Origin: a virus
Virus record (IMG/VR): IMGVR_UViG_3300035696_000007
Span: 96,001-160,000 of that record
Reading direction: 5' to 3' (one strand)
DNA: 64,000 nucleotides
Shown: positions 258 through 61,254 of the stretch, piece by piece
Position numbering within the stretch: the first letter of the stretch is position 1
Layout of the letters: each line of letters starts with the position of its first letter
Made by a program: the position numbers and the translations under genes
Notes under the pieces: model-generated
What the model saw: only the letters and a program-made list of their open reading frames with translations
Database searches by the model: none
What the model was told of the DNA's origin: nothing

Positions 258-779
258 ATGGACCCGCAGATGGCCGCCAAGCTCGGCGACGGGACCCTGA
301 TCGACTTCGGGGCCGGCTCGCACCTCCCGGTGCTGCTGGCCTGCCTGCGCGCGACGACCGGCCCGGTCCTGGAGATCGGCTGCGGCCACATCTCCACCCC
401 GTGCCTGCACTCGGCCTGCTGCCCCTGGCGACCGCTGGTGAGCCTGGAGGAGAACCCCCACTGGCTGGCCGTGTTCCAGGAGTGGGCGGTGGACGGCCAC
501 AGGGTCGAGGCGGACAGCCCGGAGAACCTGGCCCAGCACGCCCGGCAGCCATGGAGCGTGGTGTTCGTCGACGACAGCCCCGGCCCGCCGCGGGCCGAGA
601 ACGTGCGGCTGTTCCTGCCCGTGGCGGACTACGTGGTCGTGCACGACGCCCAGGGCGAGGACATCATGGTCCCGATGCGGCCGGTGATCGCGGGCGTGCC
701 CCACCAGCTGATGCACAGGCGCTTCTTCCCGTGGACGCTGGCGCTGAGCATGACGAGGCCCATCCCGGCCGTCGTCTAG
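258..779 (+). CDS. Class I SAM-dependent methyltransferase-like protein
   Basis: PVLEIGCG motif I, VVFVDD and VVVHD strands; TATTTA-N4-ATG upstream. Confidence 0.6.
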   Translation: MDPQMAAKLGDGTLIDFGAGSHLPVLLACLRATTGPVLEIGCGHISTPCLHSACCPWRPLVSLEENPHWLAVFQEWAVDGHRVEADSPENLAQHARQPWSVVFVDDSPGPPRAENVRLFLPVADYVVVHDAQGEDIMVPMRPVIAGVPHQLMHRRFFPWTLALSMTRPIPAVV

Positions 780-1165
780 TTCTCCGGCGCGTCGTGGTGG
801 TCGGGCGCCAACTCCTGGGCGCGCTCGGACGGGCGACGCCCCGGCCGGCGCATCCTCTCGTCGTAGGAGAGGAACTCCCTGTCGCGGTAGGCCGAGCCGA
901 ACTTGGCGTGCGTGACGTGGACGTCCCCGTTCGCGGGGTCCATCAGCTCGTCCACCCACGCCGTGCCCACTTCGCCGCCCTGCATCTGCACGTGCCTCAG
1001 AAGCCCGTTCTTCAGGGCCGCCAGCGCCTCCTGCTCGGTGCGGCCATAGGCGTCGAAGGAAAAGTGCCGGGTGTCCACGCTGGCGTGGCAGAGGTCGCCC
1101 TTCATCAGGTCGGCGACGCGGAACTCCCCCTCGGCCTCGCAAAGCCGCTGGATCACGGATCTCAT
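776..1165 (-). CDS. Small late protein, putative head-internal protein
   Basis: N-term RSVIQRLCE motif; TAGTTA-N4-ATG. Confidence 0.6.
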   Translation of the reverse strand: MRSVIQRLCEAEGEFRVADLMKGDLCHASVDTRHFSFDAYGRTEQEALAALKNGLLRHVQMQGGEVGTAWVDELMDPANGDVHVTHAKFGSAYRDREFLSYDERMRRPGRRPSERAQELAPDHHDAPEN

Positions 1166-1172
1166 GCCGTAA

Positions 1173-1853
1173 CTACCGGCCGACCTCGCGGACGGCCTTC
1201 CCCAGGCGGATGGCCAGCTTGCGCACGACCTCGCGGCCCTGCGGGGTGGTCTTGGCGAACTTGGCCTTGAGGGCGTCCTCGTCGATGGCCAGGGCGCTGA
1301 TCTTCTGGATCTGGCCCAGCAGGTCGCTGATGTTGACGGCGCCCGAGTCGATCCTGGCCTGGATCTTGTCCTCCACCTTGAGCAGGAGCTCCAGCAGGGC
1401 GAGCCGCTCCGTGGGGCTGAGCTCGCTGCGGTAGGCCTGGACGATGAGGCCGTGCTCCAGGTGGGACCGGGCCTGCGCCACCACCACGGCCCGGATGAAC
1501 GTGTGGGCGAGGATGATCTGCTTGACGACCTCGGCGCGCTGGTCCTGGTGGGAGATGAGGCGGGAGATGGTCGGGTAGAGGTGGGCGACCGGCTTGCCGT
1601 CCTGGGTGTTGAGGATCAGCTCGCGCAGGGCGGTGAGCGCCACGTCGGCGGCGGGCGGGATGGGCGGGACGAGGGTGGCGGGGACGGCCACGCCGAACTT
1701 CACCAGGGCGGCGGACTCCTCCTGCTCGGTCGCCAGGACGCGGGCGAGCGTGTCCGCCAGCTCGTCGGCGGCGCCGCCGAGGAGCTTGTCGATGGGCAGG
1801 GCGGGCAGCGGGACCAGCCTAGCCGGCACCGGCCTGTGGAGGCGGCGGGGCAT
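1173..1853 (-). CDS. Hypothetical helical protein
   Basis: ORF with GC3-biased codons, tiles with neighbours. Confidence 0.6.
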   Translation of the reverse strand: MPRRLHRPVPARLVPLPALPIDKLLGGAADELADTLARVLATEQEESAALVKFGVAVPATLVPPIPPAADVALTALRELILNTQDGKPVAHLYPTISRLISHQDQRAEVVKQIILAHTFIRAVVVAQARSHLEHGLIVQAYRSELSPTERLALLELLLKVEDKIQARIDSGAVNISDLLGQIQKISALAIDEDALKAKFAKTTPQGREVVRKLAIRLGKAVREVGR

Positions 1854-1862
1854 GCGGGGCCG

Positions 1863-2060
1863 TCACCCGAAGATCTGCCGCTTGACCTCGACCTTGGGCG
1901 CTGGGGCCGCGCCGCCGGCCTCCTGAAGCTTCTGCTTGCGCTTCTCAACCTCGGCCTGGGCCGCCTGCTCGTCGGGGAACGTCGCGCCGTCGCGGCGCAC
2001 GCCGCCCTCCGTCACGACGAACTGCTCCCCCGGCTGCTTCGATGTTTCCTTTGTGGGCAT
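1863..2060 (-). CDS. Hypothetical protein
   Basis: 65-aa ORF preceded by GTTCT-N7-ATG. Confidence 0.55.
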   Translation of the reverse strand: MPTKETSKQPGEQFVVTEGGVRRDGATFPDEQAAQAEVEKRKQKLQEAGGAAPAPKVEVKRQIFG

Positions 2061-2121
2061 ACGATTGAGAACAGCATAAGTACCGGCCAGCCGCCAGCAA
2101 ATCGTCGGGGCTAATTAGTTC

Positions 2122-4557
2122 GTGGCCCTACCTCTGAACGCCGGGCAGCTTTGCACCACGCTGGACAGCCTCAAGATCCTGGCGATCTCGACGCTGTCCA
2201 AGCTGACCGGGAGGCTGTACGCGCTGCGCAGGCTGGCGAGCCTGCTGGAGCTGGCGGGCGACTCGATCACGCTGCCCGACCCGTCGACGCTCATCCCGTA
2301 CAACCTCGTCGACCCGACCCTCTACAACCAGATCGCGGACGCCTGCCCGGGGCTGCTGCCGCCGCTCGACCCCTTCAACGTCGGGGTGAACCTGCTGCGC
2401 CAGATGGTGCGGGACGCCTACGCCAACCTGGCGGACTCGCTGCTGGAGCACCCCTACGAGAAGCTGATGGGCCTCGACAGCGAGCTGAACGGGCTGGTCA
2501 ACCAGGCGGCCACGGGGCTGGCCAACGCGGCCATCCCGCCGCTCTCGGCGCTCGACTGCGTCACGGCCGTCTGCGCGATCGGCGGCGTGGGCGACCCGTC
2601 GGCCCCGTCCGTCATCCCTTCGGTCTCGCCCGACCTGATCGCCGGAGTCGCGCAAGCCATCCAGACCGGCGGGGCGTCCTCGATCACCGCCTTGAGCGCC
2701 TCGCAGAAGCAGAAAGCTGCGCAGATCAAGGCCCTCATCGCGCAGGTCAAGGAGCTGGCGGCCGGGCCAGCCACAGCAACGGCCGCTACGACCGTTTCCT
2801 CGGCGGGCACGACGGCGCCCGCCACCAAGGCGACGCCGGCCCAGCGCACCGCGGCCATCCAGCAGATGGGCGTCGTGACGACCGGCACCCCCGGCGGCGG
2901 GGGCTTCGGCGCCGGCAATCAAGGGCCGCAGGGGGCGCAAGGGGCGCAGGGGGCGCAAGGAACCTCCGGCTTCCTCGGGGGCACGGGCCCGCAGGGCCCG
3001 CAAGGCTACCAGGGCGCGTTCGGCGGCCCGCAGGGCATCACCGGCCCGCAGGGGCCGCCCGGCACCCAAGGCCCCCGCGGCTTCCAAGGCAGCCCCGGCC
3101 CCCAGGGCAACCAGGGCAACCAGGGCAACCAGGGGAACCAGGGCTACCAGGGCTACCAGGGCAGCACCGGGCCGCAAGGGTTCCAGGGCTACCAGGGTTC
3201 CACGGGCACCCAAGGGAAGACGGGCGCCCAGGGCTCCACGGGGGTTGGGACGCAGGGGGCCCAGGGCGCGACCGGCCCGCAGGGGGCGTTCGGGGGGCCG
3301 CAAGGCGCGACCGGCCCGCAGGGGTACCAGGGCTACCAAGGGAGCACGGGCGCCCAGGGCACCCCAGGCACCGGGGCCCAGGGCTACCAGGGCCTCCAGG
3401 GCAGCACGGGCGCCCAGGGGTACCAGGGCAGCACCGGAACCCAAGGCGGCACCGGCACCCAGGGCTACCAGGGCAGCACGGGCCCGCAGGGCGCGTTCGG
3501 GGGGCCGCAGGGCGACACGGGGCCCCAGGGCTACCAGGGCCTCCAGGGGAGCACCGGCCCGCAGGGCAACCAAGGCTTTCAAGGCCTGCAAGGCTCGACC
3601 GGAACCCAGGGGTACCAGGGCCTCCAGGGGAGCACCGGGGCGCAGGGGTACCAAGGCCTGCAGGGCAGCACCGGCTCCCAAGGGAACCAGGGCTACCAGG
3701 GCAAGACCGGGAACCAAGGCTACCAGGGCAGCACGGGCACGCAAGGCTACCAGGGCTATCAGGGGAGCACCGGCGTCCAGGGCTACCAGGGCGTCCCAGG
3801 CACCGGGGCGCAGGGGTACCAGGGCTACCAGGGGAGCACCGGGGCGCAAGGGTACCAGGGCGGCACCGGAACCCAGGGGTACCAGGGCCTGCAAGGCGAC
3901 ACAGGGCCACAGGGCGCGTTCGGGGGGCCGCAGGGAGCCACGGGGGCGCAGGGCTACCAGGGCCTCCAGGGCAGCACCGGCCCGCAGGGCGGAACGGGGG
4001 CCCAAGGCTACCAGGGCCTCCAAGGGGCGACCGGAACCCAGGGGTACCAGGGCCTCCAGGGCAGCACGGGCGCCCAAGGCTACCAGGGCCTCCAGGGGGG
4101 CACGGGCGTCCAGGGCGCGACCGGCACGCAAGGGTACCAGGGCGTCGTTGGCTCGACGGGGAGCCAGGGCGTCCAGGGCAGCACGGGCGCCCAGGGATTC
4201 CAGGGCAGCACGGGCCCGCAGGGCTACCAGGGGAGCACCGGCGTCCAGGGCTACCAGGGCTACCAGGGCGGCACCGGCACGCAGGGGGCGTCGGGCACGG
4301 GGGCGCAGGGGCCGCAAGGCGACACCGGGCCGCAAGGCTCCTACGGGGGGCCCCAGGGCGCGACCGGCGCCCAGGGCTTCCAGGGCGACACCGGCCCGCA
4401 GGGCGCGTCCGGGTTCCTCGGGGGCACCGGCCCGCAGGGCGCCACCGGCCCGCAGGGCTACCAGGGCGGCGCGGGCGCCACGGGCCCGCAGGGGGCGCAG
4501 GGGGCGCAAGGCAGCGGGGCGGTCCTCGATTGGGTCTCCGTCTGGCTGATTACTTAA
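2122..4557 (+). CDS. Collagen-like virion fibre protein
   Basis: About 530 aa of G-X-Y repeats ([12 protein letters not shown]) after a helical N-domain; TAATTA-N4-GTG. Confidence 0.85.
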
Positions 4558-36592: not shown

Positions 36593-36820
36593 CTAACTAT
36601 CGAGCTCGGCGGCGAGGTGGGCGACGACCTTCCGGTACTCCGGCCGGAGCACGGGGTGCATGCCGACGAACCAGTCGGCGCCGAACTCGGCGAGCTGCTG
36701 CGTCGTGCGCCTCGGGTCGTCCGGGTCAGACTGGGCCATGCACATCAGGCCGTAGGCGGCGTGCAGGTCGCTCGCCTCCTCGTCGGTCAGCAGCTCAAGC
36801 TCAAGGCGGTCTTCTCCCAT
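36593..36820 (-). CDS. Small late protein
   Basis: TAGTTA-N5-ATG. Confidence 0.55.
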   Translation of the reverse strand: MGEDRLELELLTDEEASDLHAAYGLMCMAQSDPDDPRRTTQQLAEFGADWFVGMHPVLRPEYRKVVAHLAAELDS

Positions 36821-38302: not shown

Positions 38303-38811
38303 ACCCCCCTGACAGCAGAGCGCGCCGGGCGGTGGACCGCCTCGTGGAGGCGGAGGCCGTCACGGCGATGGACAAGGCGACCGCCAAGCGCATCCACCAC
38401 GAGGCGGACGACCTGATGAGGACGCTGGCCGAGGACCTAGGGATGCAGCACGCCGGCAAGGGCGGCAGCTACAGCTAGGACACCTTCACCTATCGCTGCG
38501 AGTTCAAGCTCAAGACGGTCGGGGGCGTCCCCGCCGAGGAGGCGAGGTTCAAGCGCGAGTGCTACCTCTTCGACTTGGAGCCGTCCGACTACGGGGCGGT
38601 GATCACCATCAACCGCGAGCAGTGGAGGCTGACGGGGCTGCAGCCGAACCGGTCGAAGTTCCCGCTGGTGTTCACCCGCGTCAGCGACGGCAAGCAGCTG
38701 CTCTTCACCGACGACCAGGTCGACAGAGTGAAGGCGGCCCGCAAGGGCGGGGCGCCGCCACCACCAGCAGCACCGATGAAGCCCTTTGCGCCGCGGGCGC
38801 CGGAGACATAG
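38299..38811 (+). pseudogene. Late gene interrupted by in-frame TAG (38476-38478)
   Basis: Same frame continues GGSYS*DTFTYRCEFKLK..; N-term RARRAVDRLVE. Confidence 0.6.
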
Positions 38812-39137
38812 TCAGACCGTCGGGTCCTCGAAGTCCTCGAACGGGTTCCCCTCGCACATGACGGCGAGCGGGACGGGGGTTATGGTGCCGTCGCGGTTGC
38901 GCTGCATCGCGGCGACGAGCGCCACGGGCTTCTTGTCCGCCTTTCGGACGGCGGAGATCAGCCCGAGGTCCCCCTCCTTGGCGGCCCGGAGGAGCATGCT
39001 GAAGTTCTTGCGGTAGCCGACGTAAGAGGGGGCGGGGTGGGCCCCTCCCCGGCCGGGGCGTCGCCCCGCTGCGCCCCCTCGTCAGCTTCCAGCAGCTTGT
39101 CGACAATCTTTCTGGCCCGCTCGGCGTCTCGGTTCAT
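38812..39137 (-). pseudogene. Late gene with internal frameshift
   Basis: MNRDAERARKIVDKLLEADE frame shifts (-1) into ..YVGYRKNFSMLLRAAKEGDL frame between about 39020 and 39081. Confidence 0.55.
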
Positions 39138-39189
39138 GCCCTAACTACAGCCCCTACGTTGTAAGCAAAAAGAGTTATGACCAGAAAGG

Positions 39190-39618: not shown

Positions 39619-40326
39619 TCACCTGCCGGACGGCGACCACGGCTGGAGCCCCGGGTAGGGGCGCCCGATGGTCTTAACCACCGCGCCGGGCCAGCGCTCG
39701 TGCAACAGATGCGCGATGACCGAGTCCAGATGCTCGGCCTCGACGCCGGCGGGAACCATGATGTTCTGGCGGTTCACCCCGACCTCCGCGCCGACGTCCA
39801 CGGTGAACTCGACGCCATAGGTCTTCGGGCCCTGGTCGAAATCGGCCTCCTCCAAGCCCCCCTCCACCTCTTCCTCCTCCGGGTGCTCGGCCTCCCAGCC
39901 CTCCAAGAAGTCGCCCCAGCTCGTCCACAGGAACTCCTCGGTCTCGCTGTCCAACAGGAGCGTGTTCTCGTAGGTGTCGCCCATGTTGACGTACGTGGCG
40001 ATGATGTCCCCGTAGTAGCCGTCCACCCAGGCGTCCTCCTTGTGGATCGCCTCGACGCCGTAGCCCTCCAGGACCTCGTTGGCGGCCTCAAGGATCTTCT
40101 CCTCGTCCGAAGGCTCGTTGTAGCACTGGCCGACCCAGTCCTGCACAGACTTGAAGGACATCGGATCGAGCTCGCCTCTCACCAGCTGTCGGATCTGCTC
40201 AGGTGCACCAGCCAGGCCTAGGTCACCCCGCGGAACAGGGGCACCGCCGCCCGGACCAGCGAGACGGTCTCTCGCGGCCATGCTCACCTCGACCAACGAA
40301 TCCAGTATGCTGCGGGCGTTGCTCAT
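39619..40326 (-). CDS. Acidic late protein with ILDSLVE motif
   Basis: TAGTTA-N4-ATG; YVNMGDTYENTLL motif. Confidence 0.65.
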   Translation of the reverse strand: MSNARSILDSLVEVSMAARDRLAGPGGGAPVPRGDLGLAGAPEQIRQLVRGELDPMSFKSVQDWVGQCYNEPSDEEKILEAANEVLEGYGVEAIHKEDAWVDGYYGDIIATYVNMGDTYENTLLLDSETEEFLWTSWGDFLEGWEAEHPEEEEVEGGLEEADFDQGPKTYGVEFTVDVGAEVGVNRQNIMVPAGVEAEHLDSVIAHLLHERWPGAVVKTIGRPYPGLQPWSPSGR

Positions 40327-40333
40327 GGCCTAA

Positions 40334-42055
40334 CTACTTGTCCAAGTCGGCTGCCTCATATCCGGCGCCGATGGAGTCCGGCCCCAAACAAGGCCAGAAG
40401 AAGCTGAACCCGCGCGTCTTCTCCAGCTCGGCGACGAGGGCCAGCGACCCGCGGCGCATCGCCGAGGTCTGCCGGTCAATGAAGAGGGTCACGTGCGCCT
40501 CGTTCTCCCCGGCAGGCTTCCTGCGGATGAAGCGCCCGATCATCTGCCGGGCGACGTCCGGCCCGGCCACGTAGTCGGCGATGACCCCGGCCTTGAGCTC
40601 CGGCAGCGACACGCCCTCCTTGACGAGCGGCGAGACGAGGACGGCCCCCGGCGTGCCGACCAGCCAGGCAAAGGCCTCGTCGCGGGTCTTCGAAGTGTCC
40701 TCGCCGGTGAGGGTGCGCACCTCGGCCAGCCCGGCCTCGGCCAACAGGGTCTCGATGATGAGGACGTGCAAGGTACGGGTAGCGATGACCAGGGTCGGCC
40801 AACCCTTGGAGACATAATGCCTGACCCACTCGACGACCAGCCGGTTGCGATCCCTGAAGCGGACGACGCCCTCATCATGCTGCCGATGGAGGAGGCACCA
40901 GCGGCTCTCCACCTCGAACTCGCCGCCCTCGTCCAGCTCGATGAGGTGCTTGTTGATGACCACGGTGGGCTCCTTCCTGGCGTTGCGCACGATCACGCCG
41001 CGCTCGTCGCGCTCGTAGACCGGCCCGACGTAGGTGCCCCGCTTCCAACCCTCGCCCATCAGGCACCAGGCCTTGGTGCCCTTCTTCGCCCGGTTGGGCA
41101 AATCCTGGAAGCGGTTGTTCCACTCCGGGCAGTCGACGAGGTAGAGGATGGGCTTGGCGACGCGCCCGACCTCGATGAGCGGCGCGAGAGTCGTGCGATG
41201 GCGGGCGGGCCCGAAGGCACCCTCGACGGCCAGCCCGCGCATCTTGTCCTGCGGGCGGCTGCTGTCCTTGACCGAGGCAGAGGCCCCGAAGCGGAAGAAG
41301 GTGGGGATGTCGCCGACGACCTTCCGGGTCGCCGGGGCGCCGACGTGGTGCACCTCGTCGAACAGGAGGCCGGAGAAGGTCTTGTACCAGCCGGAGACTA
41401 AGAACCGGTCATGGTTACGGTTGAGCGAGGCCATCGTGGCCACGACCATGTCCCGCCCCGTCTCCGACTTCACCCCGCCGCCGAACTGCGACACCCTCAG
41501 GGAGGGTGCTAGCTTCCTAGCCTCCTTGACAACCTGGCGGACGAGCCGCTCGGAGGGCGTGACGTAGAGGAACCGGGCGTCGGGGAAGCGCCGGCGGATG
41601 AGGAGGGCGACGGAGAAGAGGACGGCGGTCTTGCCGCCGGAGGTGGTGATCTCGACGGTGCCGAAGGCGTTGCGGCAAAGCTCGGCCACGCAAGTCCGCT
41701 GGTCGAGGTCGAGGGTCAGGCCCTTGAGCAAGTCGGGCGGCACGTCGTCGACGGTGATCCCGGCGAGCGGCTTGCGCCGCTCTTTCCATTCGACCTCGAT
41801 GTCCTCCTGCGCGGCGGCCGCCAGCAGCCGCTCCTGGTGGCCCCGCTGCACCCACGCCTGGTCGCGGGCGACGCGGTGCACCAGCGTTAGCGTGCCATCC
41901 CAGCCACTCTTACCGTCGGTGCGCTTCCACAGCTGGTACTTCGGCGATCGCCAGTACTCCGGCGGGTGGAACCGAAGGCGCTCCACGAGGGCGTCCAGCT
42001 CGCCCCTCTCGCCCTTGAGCCAGACCCGCACGTTGGATTCTTCGAGCGTAACCAT
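40334..42055 (-). CDS. uvsW: SF2 DNA helicase, UvsW-like
   Basis: TTSGGKT Walker A, FDEVHH, EGVSLPEL, QMIGRFIR; N-term FHPPEY..PKY..WDG. Confidence 0.85.
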   Translation of the reverse strand: MVTLEESNVRVWLKGERGELDALVERLRFHPPEYWRSPKYQLWKRTDGKSGWDGTLTLVHRVARDQAWVQRGHQERLLAAAAQEDIEVEWKERRKPLAGITVDDVPPDLLKGLTLDLDQRTCVAELCRNAFGTVEITTSGGKTAVLFSVALLIRRRFPDARFLYVTPSERLVRQVVKEARKLAPSLRVSQFGGGVKSETGRDMVVATMASLNRNHDRFLVSGWYKTFSGLLFDEVHHVGAPATRKVVGDIPTFFRFGASASVKDSSRPQDKMRGLAVEGAFGPARHRTTLAPLIEVGRVAKPILYLVDCPEWNNRFQDLPNRAKKGTKAWCLMGEGWKRGTYVGPVYERDERGVIVRNARKEPTVVINKHLIELDEGGEFEVESRWCLLHRQHDEGVVRFRDRNRLVVEWVRHYVSKGWPTLVIATRTLHVLIIETLLAEAGLAEVRTLTGEDTSKTRDEAFAWLVGTPGAVLVSPLVKEGVSLPELKAGVIADYVAGPDVARQMIGRFIRRKPAGENEAHVTLFIDRQTSAMRRGSLALVAELEKTRGFSFFWPCLGPDSIGAGYEAADLDK

Positions 42056-44460: not shown

Positions 44461-45978
44461 TCAGGAGATTGCGTTGGCCGGCTTGTCGCCGGTGATGACG
44501 ATTTCGACCTGGTTGGTGCCCCAGGAGGTGACGTTCCAGGCGGTGCCACCCATGGGCACGACGGAGACCAGCGGGACAGTCGTAAGGCCGAACAGCGGGT
44601 TGCCGTGGGTGCTGGCCTCGATGACCGTGTCCGCGACCGTCCAGTTGGCCCGGGCGCTGTTGGCCAGCGTGGGCAGGTTGATCTGGAGGTCGCCGTAGAA
44701 CACCAGCCCGGCGCGGCCCCGCAGCCAATTCATCGAGCTGTAGGGCTGGGCGGGCGGGCCGCCGAAGATGACGGACTCGACGAACGGGAAGTTCCAGATG
44801 GTGCCGACGACGATGATGTCGTAGCCCGGCTGGGCCGTCGTGGGGTCGGCGACGAAGCTGGCCTGGGGCGCGACGGCGACGGGCACCGAGGACTGGACGT
44901 AGCACGGGCCGGTGAACGGCCCGAAGAGCGGCAGCCACGGGGCGGACGGCGGGGCGTTGTACGTGGCGCCGACGTCGTTGTAGTACACCATCGTCTGGGT
45001 GGTGCCGGTGCCATTAAGGACCACCGCGCCGTACGGGTACTGCGTGCCCGCGGCGAAGTACCCCATGTATATGAAGCCCTGAGTGCCCGTGGCGCCCACC
45101 TCGCCCTGCACGCCCTGCGCGGCGGCGGCGAGCACGTCCCAGTTGGTCGACGGCGCATTGGCGGGCAGGGGCGGGACGACGCCCGTGCACGGCAGGATGT
45201 TGATGTAGCTGACCAAGCCGATCGTGCCGTCCCAGTCGTGGCTGACGCCGTCGTTGACGGCGTAGATGGAGGTGTTGCTGTACGCGCCGCGCCAGTTGAG
45301 GCCGGCGAGGCCGGGGGCGCCCGGAGGGCCGACGACGCCCACCCCCTGCGGCCCCTGCGGGCCGGGGGCACCCTGCGAGCCCTGCACGCCCGGGCCGATG
45401 ACACTGCCCGTCTGGGCGGTGGTCGGGCGGACAGTCATCATGATCGAGGCGACGACCTCGGTCGGCGTGACGCCGGTGTTAGTGAGCTGGACGACGAACT
45501 CGCCCGTGCCGTAGAAACTGGTGCCCGCGCCGGATTCCTTGTAGGTGGAGACGGCGGTAACCGAGCCGGTCGTCTGGCCGAACGTGTTCGCGTTGTAAAG
45601 GACCTCCAGGAGCACCTGCTGGGTGACGGGGGTGGAGGAGACGGTCGAGTCAATCAGCCGGGCCTCGAAGCCGGGTGGGATGCGGTAGTTGGTGGCGACC
45701 ACCGACTCGCCGGGGCCCAGCGCCGTCCAGATGGCCGGCAGGTTCATCAGCTGCTCCTTGTTGTTCACGACCGCGATCAGCTCGTTGAGCTTCGCGGAGA
45801 GCAGGGCGTCGCGGTACGCCAGCATGCGGGTGACGTTGCTGATGGCCGGCGCGTCCAGCGGGCTGCTGGGGCCGAGGTGCTGCACGTCGCCGCCGTTGTA
45901 GTTGATCGGCGAGCCGTCCGGGAGGGAGAGCGGGCTGACCAAGCCCAAGGTGCCTGTGCTGACAATCTGAGTCGCCAC
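44461..45978 (-). CDS. Tail fibre protein with short collagen segment
   Basis: GVQGSQGAPGPQGPQG, NWRGAYS..YAVND repeats; TAGTTA-N4-GTG. Confidence 0.7.
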   Translation of the reverse strand: MATQIVSTGTLGLVSPLSLPDGSPINYNGGDVQHLGPSSPLDAPAISNVTRMLAYRDALLSAKLNELIAVVNNKEQLMNLPAIWTALGPGESVVATNYRIPPGFEARLIDSTVSSTPVTQQVLLEVLYNANTFGQTTGSVTAVSTYKESGAGTSFYGTGEFVVQLTNTGVTPTEVVASIMMTVRPTTAQTGSVIGPGVQGSQGAPGPQGPQGVGVVGPPGAPGLAGLNWRGAYSNTSIYAVNDGVSHDWDGTIGLVSYINILPCTGVVPPLPANAPSTNWDVLAAAAQGVQGEVGATGTQGFIYMGYFAAGTQYPYGAVVLNGTGTTQTMVYYNDVGATYNAPPSAPWLPLFGPFTGPCYVQSSVPVAVAPQASFVADPTTAQPGYDIIVVGTIWNFPFVESVIFGGPPAQPYSSMNWLRGRAGLVFYGDLQINLPTLANSARANWTVADTVIEASTHGNPLFGLTTVPLVSVVPMGGTAWNVTSWGTNQVEIVITGDKPANAIS

Positions 45979-46010
45979 GCCCTAACTATTCCCGGCGCGG
46001 CGCGGCGCCT

Positions 46011-47043: not shown

Positions 47044-48939
47044 TCAGCCTCGCGACACCGGCGACCAGGCCCTCCACGCCTCGCCCTGGGCCTTCTGGAC
47101 GTCGTTCGCGAAGTGGTCGAGCTGCCCGAACGACGAGACGATGAGGTCGCCCGGCTTGATCGCCCCGTCCAGCCGGTCGGGCCGGGTCTGCTCACTCTCG
47201 AAGATCTTGCGCCCGTGGTGGGCCAGCGTCCTGTGGTTGCTGCGGGTGTCGTAGACGACTTGGCGCAGGTCCTCGACCACCGTGCGGAGGTAGCGGTTGC
47301 CCTGCACCTTCTTCTCGATCTCCTCAAGGAGCTGGCGGGTGGTGTCGCCGCGGGCCGTGCGCTGCTTGCTCTCCGTGGGGCCCTTGGCCTCCGGGGGCAG
47401 CGCCGTCATGAAGGCGTCGACCACCTCGGAGGGCAGGTGCATGTACTTCTTGAAGATGACCTCCAGCCAGACCTCCTGCGGGAGGCTGTACTTGTCGACG
47501 ACGTCGCCAAGCTTCTGGAGGATGTCGACCTGCTTTTCCAGCATCTCCAGCTTCATCTGGTCCTCCAGGGACCCGATGTCGCTCATCCTGGTGCGGATGT
47601 CGAGGTTGGTGATGTTCTTGCCCTTCAGGAGGCAGTGGAAGTAGGCCAGCCAGGTGTAGCCGTTGATGATGGGGCGCCGCAGGGCCTTGACCTTGCGGTA
47701 GAACCGAGCGTCCTGAGCGAGCAGCGCCTTGCCGGACGCGGGCTGGTTGCCACCCTCGCCGCCGCCCGTGCTGGCCATGCCGAGCCAGGACTTGGGCATG
47801 CCGATGATCGAGAAGAAGAGGTTCACGAGCATCTCGATGTCGTACACGTCGGGCACGGTGGTGGTGCCGGCCAGCTTCTCGATGGCATGGTTGAAGCCCT
47901 TCGGCTTCGCCAGCCAGAAGATGGTGTCGAGCGAGAGGGCGTTGTAGTAGGACTTGAAGTCGTTCGGGGTGGTGTAGTCGATGTTCTGCCCCTGCTGGTT
48001 GGTGGTTCCGCCCCAGCCGAAGGCCAGCTTGGCCCGCATGGACTGCTTCCACCGCTGGATGGTGCGCATTTGCTCGACGGGCGGCTGCTCCTGGGTGTCG
48101 ATGTTGACGACATAGCGGTCGGGCTGGACCTGGGCGCGATGGACGACCATCTGGTCGATGGCCAGGCGGAGCTTCTTGTAGATGCCCTGGGCCTCATCGA
48201 AGATCGGCTCGCCGTGCTCGTTGAGCCGGAGCCGGTACATGCGGCGGAAGTGGAGGAAGTCCCACGGGTAGTGGAGCTCCTCGGTGGACTGGCCGTCGGC
48301 GATCTCCGTGTGGGGGACGATCTTGTTGGCCTGCATCCAGAGGCTCTCCTTGTCGGGCTTCACCAAGTTGGACATGTTCTGGTTCCACCGGAAGCCGACG
48401 CACTGCCGGTTCTTGGCGAGCCAGTAGCGGCGCACGTCCATCGGATGGGCGAAGGCCATGCCCAGGACACCCTCCTTCTGGGCGTAATAGAGCTTCTCGA
48501 AGTGGTTGCCGAAGGCGGCGGTGTGCCAGAACTGCGACGGGAGGACGCCCTCCACGTCCAGCTTCTCCACGATGTTCTCGTTGAGGTCGTCCTCGACCTC
48601 GTGATCGTTGCTCTCGTACCAGAGCGTGCCAGGAGCCATGGAGTCGGGCTGGGTAGCCTCGTCAACCACCTCGACCAGGGCGGCCGCCAGCAGGTCCCAG
48701 GTCGACATGTCCTGCCAAAGGCGGAGCATCTCGTCGTACGAGGTGGGCATCCGCATGCTGGCGTTGTAGTAGCTCCAGACGTCCGGGTTGGCGATCTTGC
48801 TGTCGTCGAGGAAAGTCTGGTAGTCCCGCTCCCGGGTGGGCAGGTTGTCCATCCGCGGCGCCAGGGTGCTGGTGGCGACGCCCCCGCCCGTGATGCCCAA
48901 AAGGCTCAGCACGTCGCCAGCGATAGAGTGTTCGGCCAT
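47044..48939 (-). CDS. Portal protein (T4 gp20-like)
   Basis: AAALVEVVDEAT, FLHFR, KKLRLAIDQMVVHRA..PDRYV.NID, IEKLAG, LAQDARF.RKV. Confidence 0.9.
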   Translation of the reverse strand: MAEHSIAGDVLSLLGITGGGVATSTLAPRMDNLPTRERDYQTFLDDSKIANPDVWSYYNASMRMPTSYDEMLRLWQDMSTWDLLAAALVEVVDEATQPDSMAPGTLWYESNDHEVEDDLNENIVEKLDVEGVLPSQFWHTAAFGNHFEKLYYAQKEGVLGMAFAHPMDVRRYWLAKNRQCVGFRWNQNMSNLVKPDKESLWMQANKIVPHTEIADGQSTEELHYPWDFLHFRRMYRLRLNEHGEPIFDEAQGIYKKLRLAIDQMVVHRAQVQPDRYVVNIDTQEQPPVEQMRTIQRWKQSMRAKLAFGWGGTTNQQGQNIDYTTPNDFKSYYNALSLDTIFWLAKPKGFNHAIEKLAGTTTVPDVYDIEMLVNLFFSIIGMPKSWLGMASTGGGEGGNQPASGKALLAQDARFYRKVKALRRPIINGYTWLAYFHCLLKGKNITNLDIRTRMSDIGSLEDQMKLEMLEKQVDILQKLGDVVDKYSLPQEVWLEVIFKKYMHLPSEVVDAFMTALPPEAKGPTESKQRTARGDTTRQLLEEIEKKVQGNRYLRTVVEDLRQVVYDTRSNHRTLAHHGRKIFESEQTRPDRLDGAIKPGDLIVSSFGQLDHFANDVQKAQGEAWRAWSPVSRG

Positions 48940-48949
48940 ATCGTAAGTA
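48940..48949 (-). promoter_or_regulatory. Late promoter motif TANTTA-N4-start (representative copy, portal gene)
   Basis: TACTTA-CGAT-ATG; about 23 copies in window. Confidence 0.75.
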
Positions 48950-54344: not shown

Positions 54345-55124
54345 TCAGATGAGAGCCGCCGTGGACACCTGGACGGGCAACCAGCCGGAGCACCCGAAAG
54401 TAGCCGTGATCATCCACACACCCTGCCCACTGTATTGGAGGGCAGAGGGTGAGATGCCGATGGGCCACATCTGGTGAATCTTGATGGCTGACGCGACCTC
54501 AAAAGGCGGGTTAGGGGCGATGACGCCCCTGCCGCCGGTCGTCGCTTGGTCCCCGCTGAGGATGGACTGCAGGGAAGCACCCATGAGCAGGTTGACGAGC
54601 ACGTCGAACTGGTAGGTGGGCTGCAGGGTCGAACCGTCGATGTCGTTGAGGCCTACGGCGAACTCGAAGTCGGGGTTGTCCGCAAAGCCGCCCTGGAAAG
54701 AGCCGCGACCCGCGCGGCCGAGGGCGCGCCAGGCGAAAAGCAGGCTCAGCAGCTTCGAGCCGAGGGCGGGGGCGGGCGAGCCTGCGTCGACGAGGAAGGT
54801 GAGCTTCACGGTCGAGGGCGCGTGGTCGATTCCCGGCACAAGGTAAGGCAGGGCGTCCCGTGCGATCGTCGGCGAGTCCATGACGAGTTCGGGCAGGTCC
54901 ACGGACTGGACGTAATAGAGGGCGTAGGCCGAGGAGGGCAGGCTTCTGAGGAGGGGGCCGGAGTTGCGGTACTGCGCAACCTGCTGCAGCTGGTTGCGGA
55001 TCTCGTTGACGACACCGTGCAAGTCGACCTGCCAGAGGTCGACCCTCTGCGCGTCCATCAAGAGCGCATTGGCCGCCGTCGGAGTGATCTTCCCCCAGGG
55101 GTTCGCTACATGGTATCTTGGCAT
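54345..55124 (-). CDS. Tail tube-like/baseplate tube-initiator protein
   Basis: QR.DLW.V, VQSVDLPEL, WPIGISPSALQY..ITATF tube-fold pattern. Confidence 0.6.
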   Translation of the reverse strand: MPRYHVANPWGKITPTAANALLMDAQRVDLWQVDLHGVVNEIRNQLQQVAQYRNSGPLLRSLPSSAYALYYVQSVDLPELVMDSPTIARDALPYLVPGIDHAPSTVKLTFLVDAGSPAPALGSKLLSLLFAWRALGRAGRGSFQGGFADNPDFEFAVGLNDIDGSTLQPTYQFDVLVNLLMGASLQSILSGDQATTGGRGVIAPNPPFEVASAIKIHQMWPIGISPSALQYSGQGVWMITATFGCSGWLPVQVSTAALI

Positions 55125-55146
55125 AGTCCTCCTGTCTAATTATGGT

Positions 55147-56043
55147 GTGGCGCACTTTTTCGCAACCTACGCCGGAACCGTAGAGTCCACCAGCGACCCG
55201 GAGAGGGTCGGGAGGCTCAAGGTGCGCGTGCCGCTGATCTACGGGCCGTCCAGCTCCAACGAGGCCATCTCGGTCTCCGACCTCCCGTGGGCCCTCCCCG
55301 CCGGCCTCCCGGCCGGGGGCACCGCCCAGTCGGGCGGGATGGTGTGGCTCCCGCAGGTGGGCGACCACGTCTGGGTGCGGTTCCTCGACGGCGAGGCCGA
55401 GAAGCCCATCTGGGAATGGGGCGCCCAGGACACCAAGCAGGCGGCCGCCTACCGGTACTTCCGGCTCCAAGACGGCGGCTACGAGGCCAGCGGCGCCGCC
55501 CCCACCATGGGGATGCTGACGCGGTACGGGCACGCCATCCAGCTCTCCCCCGGCGCCGTGGTCCTGTCCAGCTCCGGCGGCTACACCTACTACGTCAACG
55601 ACAGCGACGAGGCGGAAGGGCAGCTCGGCCTGCGCACGGCGCGGGGGTACCTCCACGAGTTCGACGACTCGACCGACACGCTGCTCCTCTACGTTCGGAA
55701 CTACACGGCCAACGTGTCCTACCTGTTCTTCACGGGCGACGACTACAAGTGGGTGGTGACCGACCAGGCCGAGTTCGACGTGGGCAACACCTTCGCGGTG
55801 ACCGCCGGGGTCTCCGCATCCTTCGACACGCCGGAGTTCGACGTGAGCGCGGCCCACTTGGAGCTTGGCATGGACGCCGACGATCCCGTAGTACGTCTCA
55901 GCGACCTCCAGGCCGCCATCGACACCGTAACCGCCTTCTTCAACGACCACCAGCACACCGGCAACCTGGGGGCGCCGACGTCGCCCCCGCTGGCCCCGAT
56001 GGAGGTCACCGGAACCGGCAGCCCCACCACGTTCTCAACCTAG
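55147..56043 (+). CDS. Baseplate spike, gp5/VgrG OB-fold
   Basis: GTVESTSDPERVGRLKVRVP, LPWA, LPQVGDHVWVRFLDG..PIW; C-term HQH. Confidence 0.9.
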   Translation: MAHFFATYAGTVESTSDPERVGRLKVRVPLIYGPSSSNEAISVSDLPWALPAGLPAGGTAQSGGMVWLPQVGDHVWVRFLDGEAEKPIWEWGAQDTKQAAAYRYFRLQDGGYEASGAAPTMGMLTRYGHAIQLSPGAVVLSSSGGYTYYVNDSDEAEGQLGLRTARGYLHEFDDSTDTLLLYVRNYTANVSYLFFTGDDYKWVVTDQAEFDVGNTFAVTAGVSASFDTPEFDVSAAHLELGMDADDPVVRLSDLQAAIDTVTAFFNDHQHTGNLGAPTSPPLAPMEVTGTGSPTTFST

Positions 56044-56246: not shown

Positions 56247-56774
56247 ATGCCAGAGGGCTACCTCACCTGCATCGGCGTCCGCGACGCGGGCGGCCGCGAG
56301 ATCGCGTTGAAGGACGCCGTCCGTTACGGCTGGCTCAGGCCCGCCAGGGCCCCCGCCGGCTGGGGCATCGGCCCCGGCGAGGTGCCGCTCGGCCACAACC
56401 TCTTCCTCGACGCCGGGCGGCAGTACCTGGCCTACTCGTTCGGGTACCGGTCGCCCGTCGCCAACTACGCCGTGCAGTACTTCGGCATCGGGACGGGCAC
56501 GTCCACGCCGACCGCGGCGGACACGGCGCTCGCCAACCCGGTGGCCTTCGACTACGCGAGCACCTACCTCAAGCTGATCGACACGGTGGACTACCCGGCG
56601 CCGTTCGTGGCCCGCGCCCTGTTCACGATCGGGGCGGGCCAGGCGAACGGCTACCTTATCACCGAGTTCGGGCTGTATTCCGGCGACAACACGCTGCTCA
56701 TCCGGCTGACGCGGGTGGGCATCAACAAGACGAGCGACTTCGCACCCCAGCTGGCGCACCGCATCCGCTTCTAG
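56247..56774 (+). CDS. Baseplate/tail-fibre attachment protein
   Basis: HNL..GRQYLA, GIGTG..P...DTAL, ANG..ITEFGL, INKTSDF. Confidence 0.7.
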   Translation: MPEGYLTCIGVRDAGGREIALKDAVRYGWLRPARAPAGWGIGPGEVPLGHNLFLDAGRQYLAYSFGYRSPVANYAVQYFGIGTGTSTPTAADTALANPVAFDYASTYLKLIDTVDYPAPFVARALFTIGAGQANGYLITEFGLYSGDNTLLIRLTRVGINKTSDFAPQLAHRIRF

Positions 56775-56776
56775 CC

Positions 56777-57118
56777 ATGAACGCCAAGGCCCTTCTCGAC
56801 CAGCTAGTCGAGATACAGGCGACCCGGAGCATCCCGCGCGAGGCGATGAAGCAGAGGATCGCCCGCGCTTTCCCAAAGCTCTGGATGAAGGACTCGGAGG
56901 AGTTCGACCCCGGAACGAGGGGGGCCATCTGGACGACGGCCGAGGACGCCGACGCCACCGCCTCAGACGGCAACCGCCTCTTCGACGCCTACGCCGAGGA
57001 CTTCAAGGAGACCACCTACGTCCTGGGCGTCCATCGGCAAATGCTCGCCCTCCTCGACGCAGGCGGCTGGTCCGCCGAGTTCTACGACCCAGGCACCGTG
57101 CTGCTCTTCCCCGGCTAG
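56777..57118 (+). CDS. Small late protein with LLDQLVE motif
   Basis: MNAKALLDQLVE; W.AEFYDPGT. Confidence 0.6.
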   Translation: MNAKALLDQLVEIQATRSIPREAMKQRIARAFPKLWMKDSEEFDPGTRGAIWTTAEDADATASDGNRLFDAYAEDFKETTYVLGVHRQMLALLDAGGWSAEFYDPGTVLLFPG

Positions 57119-58562: not shown

Positions 58563-58586
58563 AAGATTGAAAAAGGTAGTTACGGC

Positions 58587-59009
58587 ATGAACAAGAGCCG
58601 ACGGGTGATCAGCCAGCTGACGGAAGCCGGGCCGGACCAGGGACAGAAGCCCGACGCCCTCGCGGCACTGGTGGCCTTCGCCAAAGAGGTGGTCGAGGCG
58701 TTCGAGGAGCACGAGTCCGGCGACCTCAACGACATCCCGGCGGACATCGTCATCGAGCGCGGCCGGGCCGCGCTGAAGCTGGCCGGCGCGGACGTGTCCA
58801 GCCTGCAGAAGTACAAGGTCGAGCAGCTCTTCGGCGGCGACTGGGGCGACCCGCAGTGGGAGGAGAACGAACACCCCATGCGCTTCGACACCGAGGAGGA
58901 GGCCTGGGTGGAGGTCGACGAGTTCCTCGCCGACGCGGCGGCCGCCGCGGAGGCCGGGCACATGGCGGCGGGGTTCAGCCGGGACGAGTTCCGGGTCGTC
59001 CCCGCCTGA
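58587..59009 (+). CDS. Acidic small late protein (VISQLTE motif)
   Basis: TAGTTA-N4-ATG. Confidence 0.65.
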   Translation: MNKSRRVISQLTEAGPDQGQKPDALAALVAFAKEVVEAFEEHESGDLNDIPADIVIERGRAALKLAGADVSSLQKYKVEQLFGGDWGDPQWEENEHPMRFDTEEEAWVEVDEFLADAAAAAEAGHMAAGFSRDEFRVVPA

Positions 59010-59012
59010 GAG

Positions 59013-59088
59013 TGGACCCCGCGGCGGGATTCGCACCCGCACCACCGGCCTTAGAACGACCGGGCGCTGTCTGTTACACCACGCGGGG
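59013..59088 (-). tRNA. tRNA-Arg(UCU)
   Basis: CGGTC-GTTCTAA-GGCCG; CCA. Confidence 0.8.
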
Positions 59089-59104
59089 AAGGGGTACTTA
59101 GGCC

Positions 59105-59341
59105 ATGAAGAGCGCCGTCGAGAGGCTGCTGGAGGACGACCGGCAACCGTGGAGCCACGAGAACACGGTCAACGCCATCGTCGGCTCGTTCGTCGGCTTC
59201 GACTTGGACGCCAGCGTCGCCAGGCTGCGCGTCCTCCTGGCCAAGGTGCCCGACCCGCTGCTGCGCCAGGTCTACGACGCGATGCACGCGGGCGAGGAGG
59301 ACACCCTCGCGAGGGGCCCCTACCGGTTCACCGACAAGTGA
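59105..59341 (+). CDS. Small late protein (AVERLLE motif)
   Basis: TACTTA-N4-ATG. Confidence 0.65.
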   Translation: MKSAVERLLEDDRQPWSHENTVNAIVGSFVGFDLDASVARLRVLLAKVPDPLLRQVYDAMHAGEEDTLARGPYRFTDK

Positions 59342-59342
59342 G

Positions 59343-59416
59343 TGGTCGCCCCGCCGGGAATCCCACCCGGGACGCGGCCTTCGGAGGGCCGCATGATATG
59401 GCTTCACCACGGGGCG
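59343..59416 (-). tRNA. tRNA-Arg(CCG)
   Basis: CGGCC-CTCCGAA-GGCCG; CCA. Confidence 0.85.
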
Positions 59417-59420
59417 AAAT

Positions 59421-59497
59421 TGGGGCGATCGACGGGGCTTGCACCCGCAACCCGCGGGCTCACAACCCGCTGCTCTGCTGATTGAGCTACGACCGCC
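59421..59497 (-). tRNA. tRNA-His(GUG)
   Basis: G-1:C73; GCGGG-TTGTGAG-CCCGC. Confidence 0.9.
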
Positions 59498-59498
59498 G

Positions 59499-59573
59499 TG
59501 GGGCCTCAGTGGGGATTTGCGCCCCCCTGTCCGATTTACAAAATCGGTCCCTCGCTGCCTAGGGGTCTGAGGC
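59499..59573 (-). tRNA. tRNA-Thr(UGU)
   Basis: CCGAT-TTTGTAA-ATCGG; CCA. Confidence 0.85.
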
Positions 59574-59596
59574 GAAGTCGAAGTTGTAGTTAAGGC

Positions 59597-59917
59597 ATGG
59601 AAAAGACTCCTGCACCGAAGCCGAAGCTGCGTGGAACCATGGCGCCGGGTTCCGCCCTCCTCAGCCTTGTCGCCGACATCGAGGCGATGCAGACCAATGT
59701 CCCCGACGAATATGAGGGGGATGCGGCTGACCGCGGCTGGTTCGGCCCCTTCGAAACAGGGGTGTCCGCGTACGAGCGGGGCCACTTCATCCTGTGGCCC
59801 AACCTTGAAATCCTTCTGGTGCAAGCCAAGGCGGCCCTGGAGGCGACCAAACCAAGAGGCTCCGCCGGCCCGGTCGAATCCAAAGCCTCCCGCCTCGTCG
59901 ACAGGCTACTCGAATGA
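59597..59917 (+). CDS. Small late protein (C-term LVDRLLE)
   Basis: TAGTTA-N4-ATG. Confidence 0.65.
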   Translation: MEKTPAPKPKLRGTMAPGSALLSLVADIEAMQTNVPDEYEGDAADRGWFGPFETGVSAYERGHFILWPNLEILLVQAKAALEATKPRGSAGPVESKASRLVDRLLE

Positions 59918-60399
59918 GCCACCGTTTCATCCTTTTCGGCGGCGGGTCTGGGAACGTCTACGGCGTCAGCGACGCCGCGAGCTTCGAGGAGGCGTGGAAG
60001 GAGATCCTGGCGGCGGGCGGGCCGCTGGGCTACTCGGCTGGCGGGGAGCCCGGGGGCGAGGTCGAGCGCGAGTGGCCCGAGTTCGACGACATGTCGGTGA
60101 TGCTCGGGGGCGCGGAGATCGAGAAAAAGGACGGCTACTGGCTGATCACCGCCCGCGACTCGGACGAGGGCCAGTTCGGACTGCTGGACGCCCAGTCCGC
60201 CAACTCGGCGGTGCAAAAGGAGATCGAGGATCTCGGCCTGCAGAAGTACGCCGACGAGTTCGTCGCCGAGAAGGCCGCGCTGGACGCCGAGGCCGAGGAC
60301 GAGATGCACCGCCAGGCGGTCTACGCGCAGGCGCCGCAGCACGAGTCGGTCAAGGCGGCCGCGAAACGGCTGGTCGACGCGCTGCTCGGCGAGGCCTGA
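59914..60399 (+). CDS. Acidic late protein (C-term LVDALLGEA)
   Basis: ATGA overlap with upstream gene. Confidence 0.65.
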   Translation: MSHRFILFGGGSGNVYGVSDAASFEEAWKEILAAGGPLGYSAGGEPGGEVEREWPEFDDMSVMLGGAEIEKKDGYWLITARDSDEGQFGLLDAQSANSAVQKEIEDLGLQKYADEFVAEKAALDAEAEDEMHRQAVYAQAPQHESVKAAAKRLVDALLGEA

Positions 60400-60402
60400 A
60401 AG

Positions 60403-60478
60403 TGGGGCCACCGACCCGAGTCGCACGGGCAACGTCCTGTTTACGGAACAGGTGCTCTGCTGATTGAGCTACGGCGGC
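60403..60478 (-). tRNA. tRNA-Thr(CGU)
   Basis: CCTGT-TCCGTAA-ACAGG. Confidence 0.85.
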
Positions 60479-60648: not shown

Positions 60649-60653
60649 GAAGT

Positions 60654-60737
60654 TGGTGGGGGCGGAGGGGGTTGCACCCTCATGCCTCGCGGCCGGGGGT
60701 TTTGGGTCCCCTGCGTATGCTGTTCCGCCACGCCCCC
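60654..60737 (-). tRNA. tRNA-Leu(CAA)
   Basis: CCCAAAA loop; long V arm. Confidence 0.85.
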
Positions 60738-60742
60738 GAGAT

Positions 60743-60819
60743 TGGCGGCGGCGACGGGAGTTGCACCCGCATTTCACCGGCTGAGAACCGGGGTTCCTAG
60801 GCTGTTAGAAGACGCCGCC
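60743..60819 (-). tRNA. tRNA-Glu(CUC)
   Basis: CCGG-TTCTCAG-CCGG. Confidence 0.85.
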
Positions 60820-60826
60820 ATGAAAT

Positions 60827-60902
60827 TGGCCGCCCCGACGGGATTCCCACCCGTGTCGCAGGCTTGAAGGGCCCGCATCCTGGGATGCTAGAAGACGGGG
60901 CG
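60827..60902 (-). tRNA. tRNA-Glu(UUC)
   Basis: CGGGC-CCTTCAA-GCCTG. Confidence 0.85.
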
Positions 60903-60905
60903 AAA

Positions 60906-60990
60906 TGGTACGGGTAGAGGGACTCGCACCCCCATGCCTTGCGGCGCCGCCTTCTGAGGGCGGTGTGTCTGCTGATTCCACCATACCCGC
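60906..60990 (-). tRNA. tRNA-Leu(CAG)
   Basis: CCGCC-CTCAGAA-GGCGG. Confidence 0.9.
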
Positions 60991-60996
60991 GTGAAA

Positions 60997-61254
60997 CTAT
61001 TCGGCCATCGCCCTGCGGATCGCGGCGAGCGCGGCCGGGTCCCCGGCCTTGGCCCTCTTGGCGAACAGGGCGAACGAGGTCCCCCTGACGGCGTCGGTGA
61101 CCGGCTTCCGGCCGTGGAGCCTCTGGAGGTCGAGCTCGGCGGCGCGGCGGGCGACTCTCTCGCCGTAGGCGTCGCGCAGCCACCGCACGGCGTCCACCGT
61201 GCTGCCCTCCTCCCTGGGCCTGGCCAGGGCGTCGGCTATCCTGACGAGCCTCAT
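60997..61254 (-). CDS. Small late protein
   Basis: TACTTA-N4-ATG. Confidence 0.55.
   Translation of the reverse strand: MRLVRIADALARPREEGSTVDAVRWLRDAYGERVARRAAELDLQRLHGRKPVTDAVRGTSFALFAKRAKAGDPAALAAIRRAMAE

Follow-up and report, generated by a model that had tools for sequence, protein, structure and literature searches.

The 64,000-nucleotide stretch of viral DNA described here (the window) comes from an uncultured, T4-like giant phage and carries a short peptide tag, repeated at the termini of ten genes whose products are otherwise unrelated. The window corresponds to bases 15584-79583, read on the reverse strand, of an 82,834-bp IMG/VR contig (G000), estimated to be about 37% complete, and has a guanine-plus-cytosine (GC) content of 65-72%. 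Gene calling by third-position GC content yielded 111 genes on the contig. Alongside the tagged genes, the window encodes a T4 gp20-family portal, a gp5-like baseplate hub and collagen-like tail fibres (Table 1), and the other recognisable genes are those for a primase, a helicase, an SbcD-like nuclease and a Dam methylase. Judged by the family of its portal, the phage is a member of the T4-type head lineage. We describe below the tag, the start element that precedes most of the genes bearing it and its counterpart in the head operon of related phages, and consider the tag as a putative capsid-targeting propeptide.

A terminal tag shared by unrelated acidic proteins

The tag is a nine-residue peptide of consensus [RK]-x-[LIVA]-[LIV]-[DEQ]-x-L-[LVCT]-(G)-E, in which the glycine is optional. 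Two genes on the same 82.8-kb contig but outside the window also carry it, giving 12 in total, and every one of these tags closes with L-x-E or L-G-E, a cut site of the head-protease type. As a helix it is amphipathic, one face holding the hydrophobic residues of positions 3, 4, 7 and 8 and the opposite face the charged ones. Within the window, eight tags begin at residues 2-12 and two occupy the last 9-11 residues of the gene. Over the contig as a whole, 10 of the 12 begin in the first 12 residues, a region that accounts for 6% of all positions (binomial P = 3.7e-11). The closing glutamate of these ten N-terminal tags lies at residue 10, 10, 10, 12, 13, 13, 13, 17, 17 and 20, and is usually followed by a small or acidic residue and then by a linker of glycine, proline and acidic residues.

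The tag family is genuine and non-random. A regular expression derived from the instances named in the original prediction, a sequence-only reading of this DNA, was run over the six-frame translation of the window and returned ten sites and no others; in a 238-kb relative the same expression has only two. When a weight matrix was applied to all six frames of the contig, only the 12 tags scored 14 or above, the background peaking near 12. Leave-one-out matrix scores were at least 11.6 for nine of the 12, and residue shuffles gave an expectation of 0.07 N-terminal matches against the nine observed. The original prediction had also named two instances, in the open reading frames (ORFs) at 36320 and 37796, that do not rise above background; their matrix scores of 7.0 and 7.8 mean that neither is supported on its own. 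It had placed each instance by an edge of its ORF, not by the motif, and several motifs are consequently found at the opposite end of the ORF.

The pattern is one of residues rather than nucleotides. The leucine at position 7 is written as CTT, TTG, CTC, CTG and CTA and the arginines as AGA, CGG, CGC and CGA, and the tag begins anywhere from 1 to 11 codons downstream of the start codon. The same residues in varied codons, at a variable distance from the start, argue that selection acts upon the peptide and not upon the DNA.

The proteins so tagged are 59-235 residues long and markedly acidic. For the 11 intact ones the isoelectric point (pI) ranges from 4.2 to 6.2 with a median of 4.65, whereas the other proteins of the contig have a median pI of 7.7 (P = 6e-5); the description of the set as mostly acidic is thus borne out, all 11 having a pI below 6.5 compared with 41 of 100 other proteins (P = 1.3e-4). 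That they are otherwise unrelated also holds at the level of BLAST, since in an all-against-all comparison the tag is the only common part. Searches of Pfam and PHROG assigned the tagged proteins to no family and detected only a zinc-ribbon-like stretch in one of them, and a search of the ESM Atlas for cargo folds gave no usable match. The protein of 58587-59009 has no relative among 5.8 billion clusters, and the core domain of the 39619-40326 protein has three distant homologues, all of which lack this tag. Used as queries, the 12 tagged proteins and the weak candidate at 36320 found no homologue in two large related contigs (G001 and G002, introduced below), whereas 28 of the 111 called contig proteins have one there. 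This absence agrees with the variable cargo of T-even internal proteins (PMC3012670).

The two C-terminal tags belong to adjoining genes, the stop codon of 59597-59917 overlapping the start of 59914-60399 (ATGA). A 54%-identical homologue of the latter (P0006) keeps the tag, while the preceding linker differs by insertions and deletions. In the homologue the tag is internal, for the chain runs 55 residues further and includes a second, tag-like RKLDKLLDD; this sequence hints at chains punctuated by tags. An AlphaFold model of the 59914-60399 protein (mean predicted local distance difference test score, pLDDT, 62) renders the tag as a separate terminal helix beside a low-confidence linker. Elsewhere, the tagged gene at 38812-39137 switches at a C5 run (about 39025-39035) into the frame that covers 38812-38997; it may be a pseudogene, undergo programmed frameshifting or have been misassembled.

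Table 1. Positions of the tagged genes, weak candidates and head genes, with genes of related contigs (window coordinates unless a contig or locus handle is given)
Feature	Position	Strand	Tag or family	Start element and context
Tagged gene, 129 residues, pI 5.6	776-1165	-	RSVIQRLCE, residues 2-10 (1136-1162)	TAGTTA 1170-1175, 4 nt before ATG
Tagged gene, 206 residues, pI 4.7, zinc-ribbon-like middle	34153-34773	-	RTLVDKLLE, residues 12-20 (34714-34740)	TAGTTA 34778-34783
Tagged gene, 59 residues	38299-38478	+	RRAVDRLVE, residues 9-17 (38323-38349)	Start overlaps end of TANTTA-headed 37796-38302
Tagged gene, apparent frameshift	38812-39137	-	RKIVDKLLE, residues 9-17 (39087-39113)	ATG at 39137; TAGTTA 39142-39147
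Tagged gene, 235 residues, pI 4.2	39619-40326	-	RSILDSLVE, residues 5-13 (40288-40314)	TAGTTA 40331-40336
Tagged gene, 113 residues, pI 4.7	56777-57118	+	KALLDQLVE, residues 4-12 (56786-56812)	Start 2 nt past TANTTA-headed 56247-56774
Tagged gene, 140 residues, pI 4.4	58587-59009	+	RRVISQLTE, residues 5-13 (58599-58625)	TAGTTA 58577-58582; flanked by minus-strand tRNA gene
Tagged gene, 78 residues, pI 5.2	59105-59341	+	KSAVERLLE, residues 2-10 (59108-59134)	TACTTA 59095-59100; between minus-strand tRNA genes
C-terminally tagged gene, 106 residues	59597-59917	+	SRLVDRLLE, last nine residues (59888-59914), behind Pro/Gly-rich linker	TAGTTA 59587-59592
C-terminally tagged gene, 161 residues, pI 4.3	59914-60399	+	KRLVDALLGE, residues 151-160 (60364-60393)	
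N-terminally tagged gene outside window	G000:C1:15109-15405	-		
N-terminally tagged gene outside window	G000:C1:10983-11261	+		
Weak candidate	36320-36589	-	C-terminal VELVNRLIG (about 36329-36355)	TAGTTA 36594-36599; Dam methylase gene follows
Weak candidate	37796-38302	+	Internal KRELEGLLGE (about 38033-38062)	TAGTTA 37786-37791
T4 gp20-family portal	47044-48939	-	Portal_T4, E = 1e-17	TACTTA-N4-ATG, TACTTA at 48944-48949
gp5-like baseplate hub	54964-56043			
Collagen-like tail fibre	2122-4557			
Collagen-like tail fibre	44461-45978			
Head-operon small acidic protein, G001	L032:14780-15274			
Head-operon small acidic protein, G002	L038:15828-16250			
Head-operon small acidic protein, G005	L049:12350-12811			
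Protease-scaffold of relatives	L032:16435-18051 (G001); also L017, L018, L020			
Module-bearing proteins of G001 (L022-L031), examples	L023:15767-16645; L025:8373-11810; L026:13251-16823; L028:11878-16157		h-I-h-x-x-L-L-E module	

The TANTTA start element and the gene neighbourhood

A TA-N-TTA element followed by exactly 4 nt and ATG or GTG heads 22 ORFs of the contig, among them the portal, the tail fibres and nine of the tagged genes. Its consensus is gTAGTTAgggcATG, with examples at 48944-48949, 2112-2117 and 45983-45988 (window 248-61264). The TAG in the element often doubles as the stop codon of the preceding gene, and a Shine-Dalgarno-like site occurs at only about one in five genes. The element is also present in a relative with 57% GC.

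Its association with the tag is strong (odds ratio 22, Fisher P = 8e-6). The earlier statement that nearly all tagged genes follow this motif is sustained: nine of the 12 have a TANTTA-N4-start of their own, and the remaining three overlap or abut the end of a TANTTA-headed gene and so stand directly behind one. Twelve TANTTA genes, the portal and fibres included, carry no tag, and no such element heads the helicase, primase, SbcD or Dam gene.

Most tagged genes are dispersed, and four of them lie together at 58587-60399, where they are fitted on the plus strand exactly between minus-strand transfer RNA (tRNA) genes (58587-60478 region). The gp5-like hub gene is here a further neighbour of tagged genes and of the tRNA array. 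At a different place, 3.9-5.0 kb past the end of the window, two adjacent paralogues of 117 and 234 residues (G000:C1:8000-9061) have the tail ...SGGAVPLLT(I) in common, a different shared terminal peptide.

A similar peptide in the head operon of related phages

Relatives were reached through the portal. The largest gene of the contig had no megablast match in a phage collection, in which a tblastn search with the portal found only 25%-identical matches, in Flavobacterium and PA5oct-type phages; the helicase recovered no relatives among viral contigs and an exact 40-mer had no match in metagenomes. Searching metagenome contigs with the portal produced one 80%-identical relative, 3.6 kb long, and relative contigs at about 51-56% identity, including G001 (238 kb, 96% complete) and G002 (203 kb, 89% complete). 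Proteins identical to those described here are also encoded on a 204.7-kb contig.

Most of these relatives encode head proteins of the T4 type. A Peptidase_S77 (gp21) domain was found in four of the five relatives searched, within a frame of about 540 residues whose second half is long, helical and scaffold-like, and a Gp23-family capsid protein in three of the four searched for it. In G001, G002 and G005 the operon runs in the order small acidic protein, second protein, 90-residue protein, protease-scaffold; the capsid gene comes next in G001 and G002, and in G005 it was judged by N-terminal sequence only. The conserved C-terminal helix of the protease-scaffold, E-A-h-x-M-V-x-R-L-S-K-A, bears a faint resemblance to the VELVNRLIG of 36320-36589. 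The N-terminus of the capsid protein was itself entertained as a tag (MVIQDALTG in G001) and dropped, as it is not conserved in G002.

The first protein of this operon has a TANTTA-type element upstream and an N-terminus that reads ...IKRILGE, ...IVAKLLGE or ...IIKLILGE; a stretch of the SLVDQILG type, similar to these, opens the second protein of G001 and G005. With the small protein of G002 as query, a full HMMER search returned 56 clusters (50% identity), about 40 of which have h-h-x-[RK]-h-L-G-E in the first 30 residues, some of them twice; the glycine and glutamate are near-invariant in the alignment. An alignment-based structure model of this family consists of a short tag helix (residues 4-10), a low-confidence linker (11-36), acidic and disordered in character, and a helical core (41-90, pLDDT >90). 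The family has no match in Pfam, PHROG or PDB, and Foldseek found none in BFVD or PDB.

A cross-validation matrix was built only from these foreign N-termini, with the glycine treated as optional. Within the contig proteome the tags rank highest on this matrix, which recovers 11 of the 12 at a score of at least 6 and makes nine N-terminal matches compared with a shuffle mean of 1.07 and maximum of 4 (100 shuffles). By contrast, an hmmsearch of the family alignment (A3) against the contig proteins gave no match. The tagged proteins are not homologous to the family core and have only the address peptide in common with it.

Other proteins of G001 bear a related module. At least ten of them (127-1509 residues) have h-I-h-x-x-L-L-E at the N-terminus, then an acidic tract and in many cases F-D-h-K-D-L, making up a two-part module of about 25 residues; apart from one NUDIX domain and one DUF5661, they belong to no families. 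The 776-1165 protein of the window also carries FRVADL, which resembles the second part of this module. N-terminal match rates in G001 are about 5 to 16 times internal rates, and tag and TANTTA are again associated (5 of 21 versus 10 of 232, P = 0.004).

A probable role in capsid targeting and the alternatives to it

By analogy with phage T4, the tag is probably a modular capsid-targeting propeptide, cut after L-x-E. The internal proteins of T4 bear N-terminal propeptides of 10-19 residues that target the scaffolding core and are removed by gp21 (PMC9026906, PMC3012670, PMC5694885, PMC9958956). Such a capsid-targeting sequence (CTS) is found on the internal proteins IPI, IPII and IPIII and on Alt (Mullaney and Black 1996, as reviewed in PMC9026906, PMC3012670, PMC5694885), with overall propeptide lengths given as 10-20 residues (PMC5694885, PMC9026906). 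Residues 4 and 7 are important in targeting, and residues 8 and 10 in processing; the proteins delivered in this way are diverse, with only the CTS conserved among them, and Alt and gp21 are processed C-terminally too (PMC9026906, PMC3012670, PMC5694885, PMC9958956). Self-cleavage of gp21 removes nine residues (PMC9958956). N-termini in the T4 record include MNEPQLLIE (gp21), MAKINELLRE (gp24), MLKEQLIAE (gp22), MEGLIE (gp67) and MKTYQEFIAE (IPII and IPIII).

Several lines of evidence favour this interpretation over others. The phage has a T4-type portal, and related phages encode a protease of the gp21 family and a capsid protein of the gp23 type. As in T4, the tag is amphipathic and mostly very N-terminal, with 10-20 residues to the glutamate and a closing L/I-x-E, on proteins that are otherwise unrelated and little conserved, in a phage whose head is of the T4 type; aligned on that glutamate, KTYQEFIAE of T4 and the tag have in common the succession basic, S/T, hydrophobic, x, acidic, x, L/I, x, E. 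The start element is common to tagged, portal and tail-fibre genes, and the same type of tag heads the first protein of the relatives' protease/scaffold/capsid operon. Furthermore, the tag is kept in the 54%-identical homologue of 59914-60399, whose linker is not. The gene layout is also alike: in T4, ipI has a tRNA cluster at a distance of about 1 kb and gene 5 at about 4 kb, much as tagged genes here are near the tRNA array and gp5-like hub. The capsid-targeting and protease-tag function that was originally proposed is accordingly the best supported, shorn of its two weak instances and of any likeness in charge to the basic internal proteins of T4. For the anti-defence role that was raised with it as a possibility, no cargo protein gave a match of family or fold.

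Other considerations weigh against this interpretation. No gene for a Peptidase_S77 protease, scaffold or capsid protein (Gp23) was found on the approximately 37%-complete contig, so the putative receptor and protease are taken from relatives at only 52-56% portal identity. Most tags here end in LLE, compared with LGE in the head-operon family, and G002 shows only weak enrichment of the tag at N-termini and no association with TANTTA. That TANTTA marks late genes we infer from gene content only. A cut after the glutamate of the two C-terminal tags would remove nothing, and the T4 CTS is defined as N-terminal. There is, moreover, no sequence similarity to the T4 CTS: the T4 N-termini scored, those of gp20-24, gp67, gp68, inh and hoc and of two Alt fragments, give -8.4 to 4.0 against at least 14 for the tags, and the comparison with the internal proteins was made by eye only. 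The link to T4 is one of analogy and not of homology. Finally, IPI-III of T4 are basic (pI 8.9-9.5), whereas the cargo here is uniformly acidic (median pI 4.65).

This acidity invites a different use of the same address. The tag might act in the prohead core, the proteins being expendable acidic core or filler, protease substrates or regulators that are degraded and expelled before DNA packaging in the manner of T4 gp67 and gp68. Indeed, the relatives' tag heads the small acidic protein that opens the protease/scaffold operon, gp67 of T4 is small, has an extremely acidic tail and is degraded by gp21 (PMC9958956), and acidic proteins are a poor fit beside packaged DNA. Core parts are conserved, however, yet all 13 tag-bearing queries lack a homologue in G001 and G002; the tagged proteins are unrelated to each other, and their cargo looks like folded domains behind linkers (a zinc ribbon, a conserved globular core). 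We consider this an unlikely role. It is similarly improbable that the helix docks another shared partner in place of the capsid, be it a hub protein of phage or host, a chaperone, or a complex of RNA and protein, for example the Ro60/Y-RNA and tRNA machinery nearby. The interleaving of four tagged genes with the tRNA array would suit such a partner, as would the presence of the tag at either end, terminal amphipathic helices being common binders of hubs; but the remaining tagged genes lie dispersed and at a distance from the RNA region, the relatives' head-operon family has a matching motif at its N-terminus, the start element is common to tagged, portal and fibre genes, and no candidate hub was identified.

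A short leader common to unrelated small proteins also brings to mind recognition by a modifying enzyme, of the kind that acts on ribosomally synthesized and post-translationally modified peptides and is linked to radical-SAM chemistry. A Radical_SAM domain (PF04055) is absent both from this contig and from G001 (96% complete, with ten or more tagged proteins), the sole radical-SAM match is a 248-residue frame in G002 and no other enzyme is consistently adjacent; this explanation is very improbable, and a radical-SAM leader was rejected on the strength of G001, which has many tags yet lacks the domain. Hardly credible, too, is conservation at the level of nucleic acid, whether as the start context of leaderless TANTTA messages or as a recombination sequence for shuffling cassettes, or chance, which is excluded by the shuffle and six-frame controls. 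Tags do stand directly behind an unusual start element, and T4-type genomes shuffle ORFans by means of promoter/stem-loop (PeSL) cassettes (PMC2839356, PMC4122927). As with PeSL, the ORFans are dispersed among core genes, each with its own short conserved regulatory element; PeSL cassettes, though, comprise early sigma-70-type promoters and terminators with no shared peptide, in place of the TANTTA-N4-start and coding tag seen here. The diversity of codons, the spacing of 1-11 codons, the C-terminal copies and the twelve untagged TANTTA genes all count against a DNA-level element, which was rejected on these grounds.

In the capsid-targeting mechanism that we favour, the tagged proteins would be produced late in infection, alongside the structural proteins, with a flexible linker connecting the short amphipathic tag helix to the cargo. 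The helix may dock on the scaffold or core of the forming prohead by mimicking the N-terminal peptide of the conserved small protein of the core module. A prohead protease of the gp21 family would then cleave after the closing L-x-E (or L-G-E), freeing the cargo within the shell, from which it would exit with the DNA at the next infection.

If so, a known T4 mechanism extends, as seems likely by analogy, to a distant clade, in which the cargo is acidic, either terminus may bear the tag, single genes form cassettes that have start elements of their own, and the tag is linked to a conserved protein of the head operon. A literature search found no description of such a tag in this phage clade. 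The scale also differs from T4, which has few loci, there being at least 12 copies scattered over 83 kb; two of those here are C-terminal, and the protease and scaffold are known from the genes of relatives alone. The giant phages phiKZ, 201phi2-1 and SPN3US have long N-terminal propeptides on head and ejection proteins, cut by gp21-like proteases (PMC5694885, PMC7411985). They resemble the present case in being large, in having a gp21-family protease, in processing many head-internal proteins after glutamate and in the conserved N-termini of diverged paralogues. Their propeptides, however, are mostly more than 100 residues long, with A/S/G-x-E sites on conserved paralogue families, unlike the nine-residue helix, L-x-E ending, unrelated ORFans and T4-type portal found here. 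Another comparison is offered by the cargo-loading peptides of encapsulins, which are short, terminal, usable at either end and dock varied cargo inside an HK97-fold shell. Encapsulins involve no protease step and no DNA, their cargo genes lie beside the shell gene, and the motif differs from the tag.

It is tempting to speculate, although we hold the idea only tentatively, that a single address peptide, copied from the N-terminus of a prohead-core protein, serves the whole clade; that it works at either end and can punctuate chains; and that it loads at least a dozen fast-evolving, mostly acidic proteins, plausibly DNA mimics or counter-defence factors, for co-injection. Were this true, the injected proteome of such phages would be legible directly from sequence. 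If the capsid-targeting interpretation itself holds, the addressing of arbitrary proteins to the capsid would be no peculiarity of the T-even phages but a general, evolvable system in distant environmental giant phages of high GC content. The tag would provide a sequence handle with which to list the proteins injected ahead of gene expression, prime candidates for counter-defence, and to find the receptor core protein and build packaging vectors for non-model phages. Acidic cargo and C-terminal tags would, in turn, widen what packaged proteins are thought able to be.

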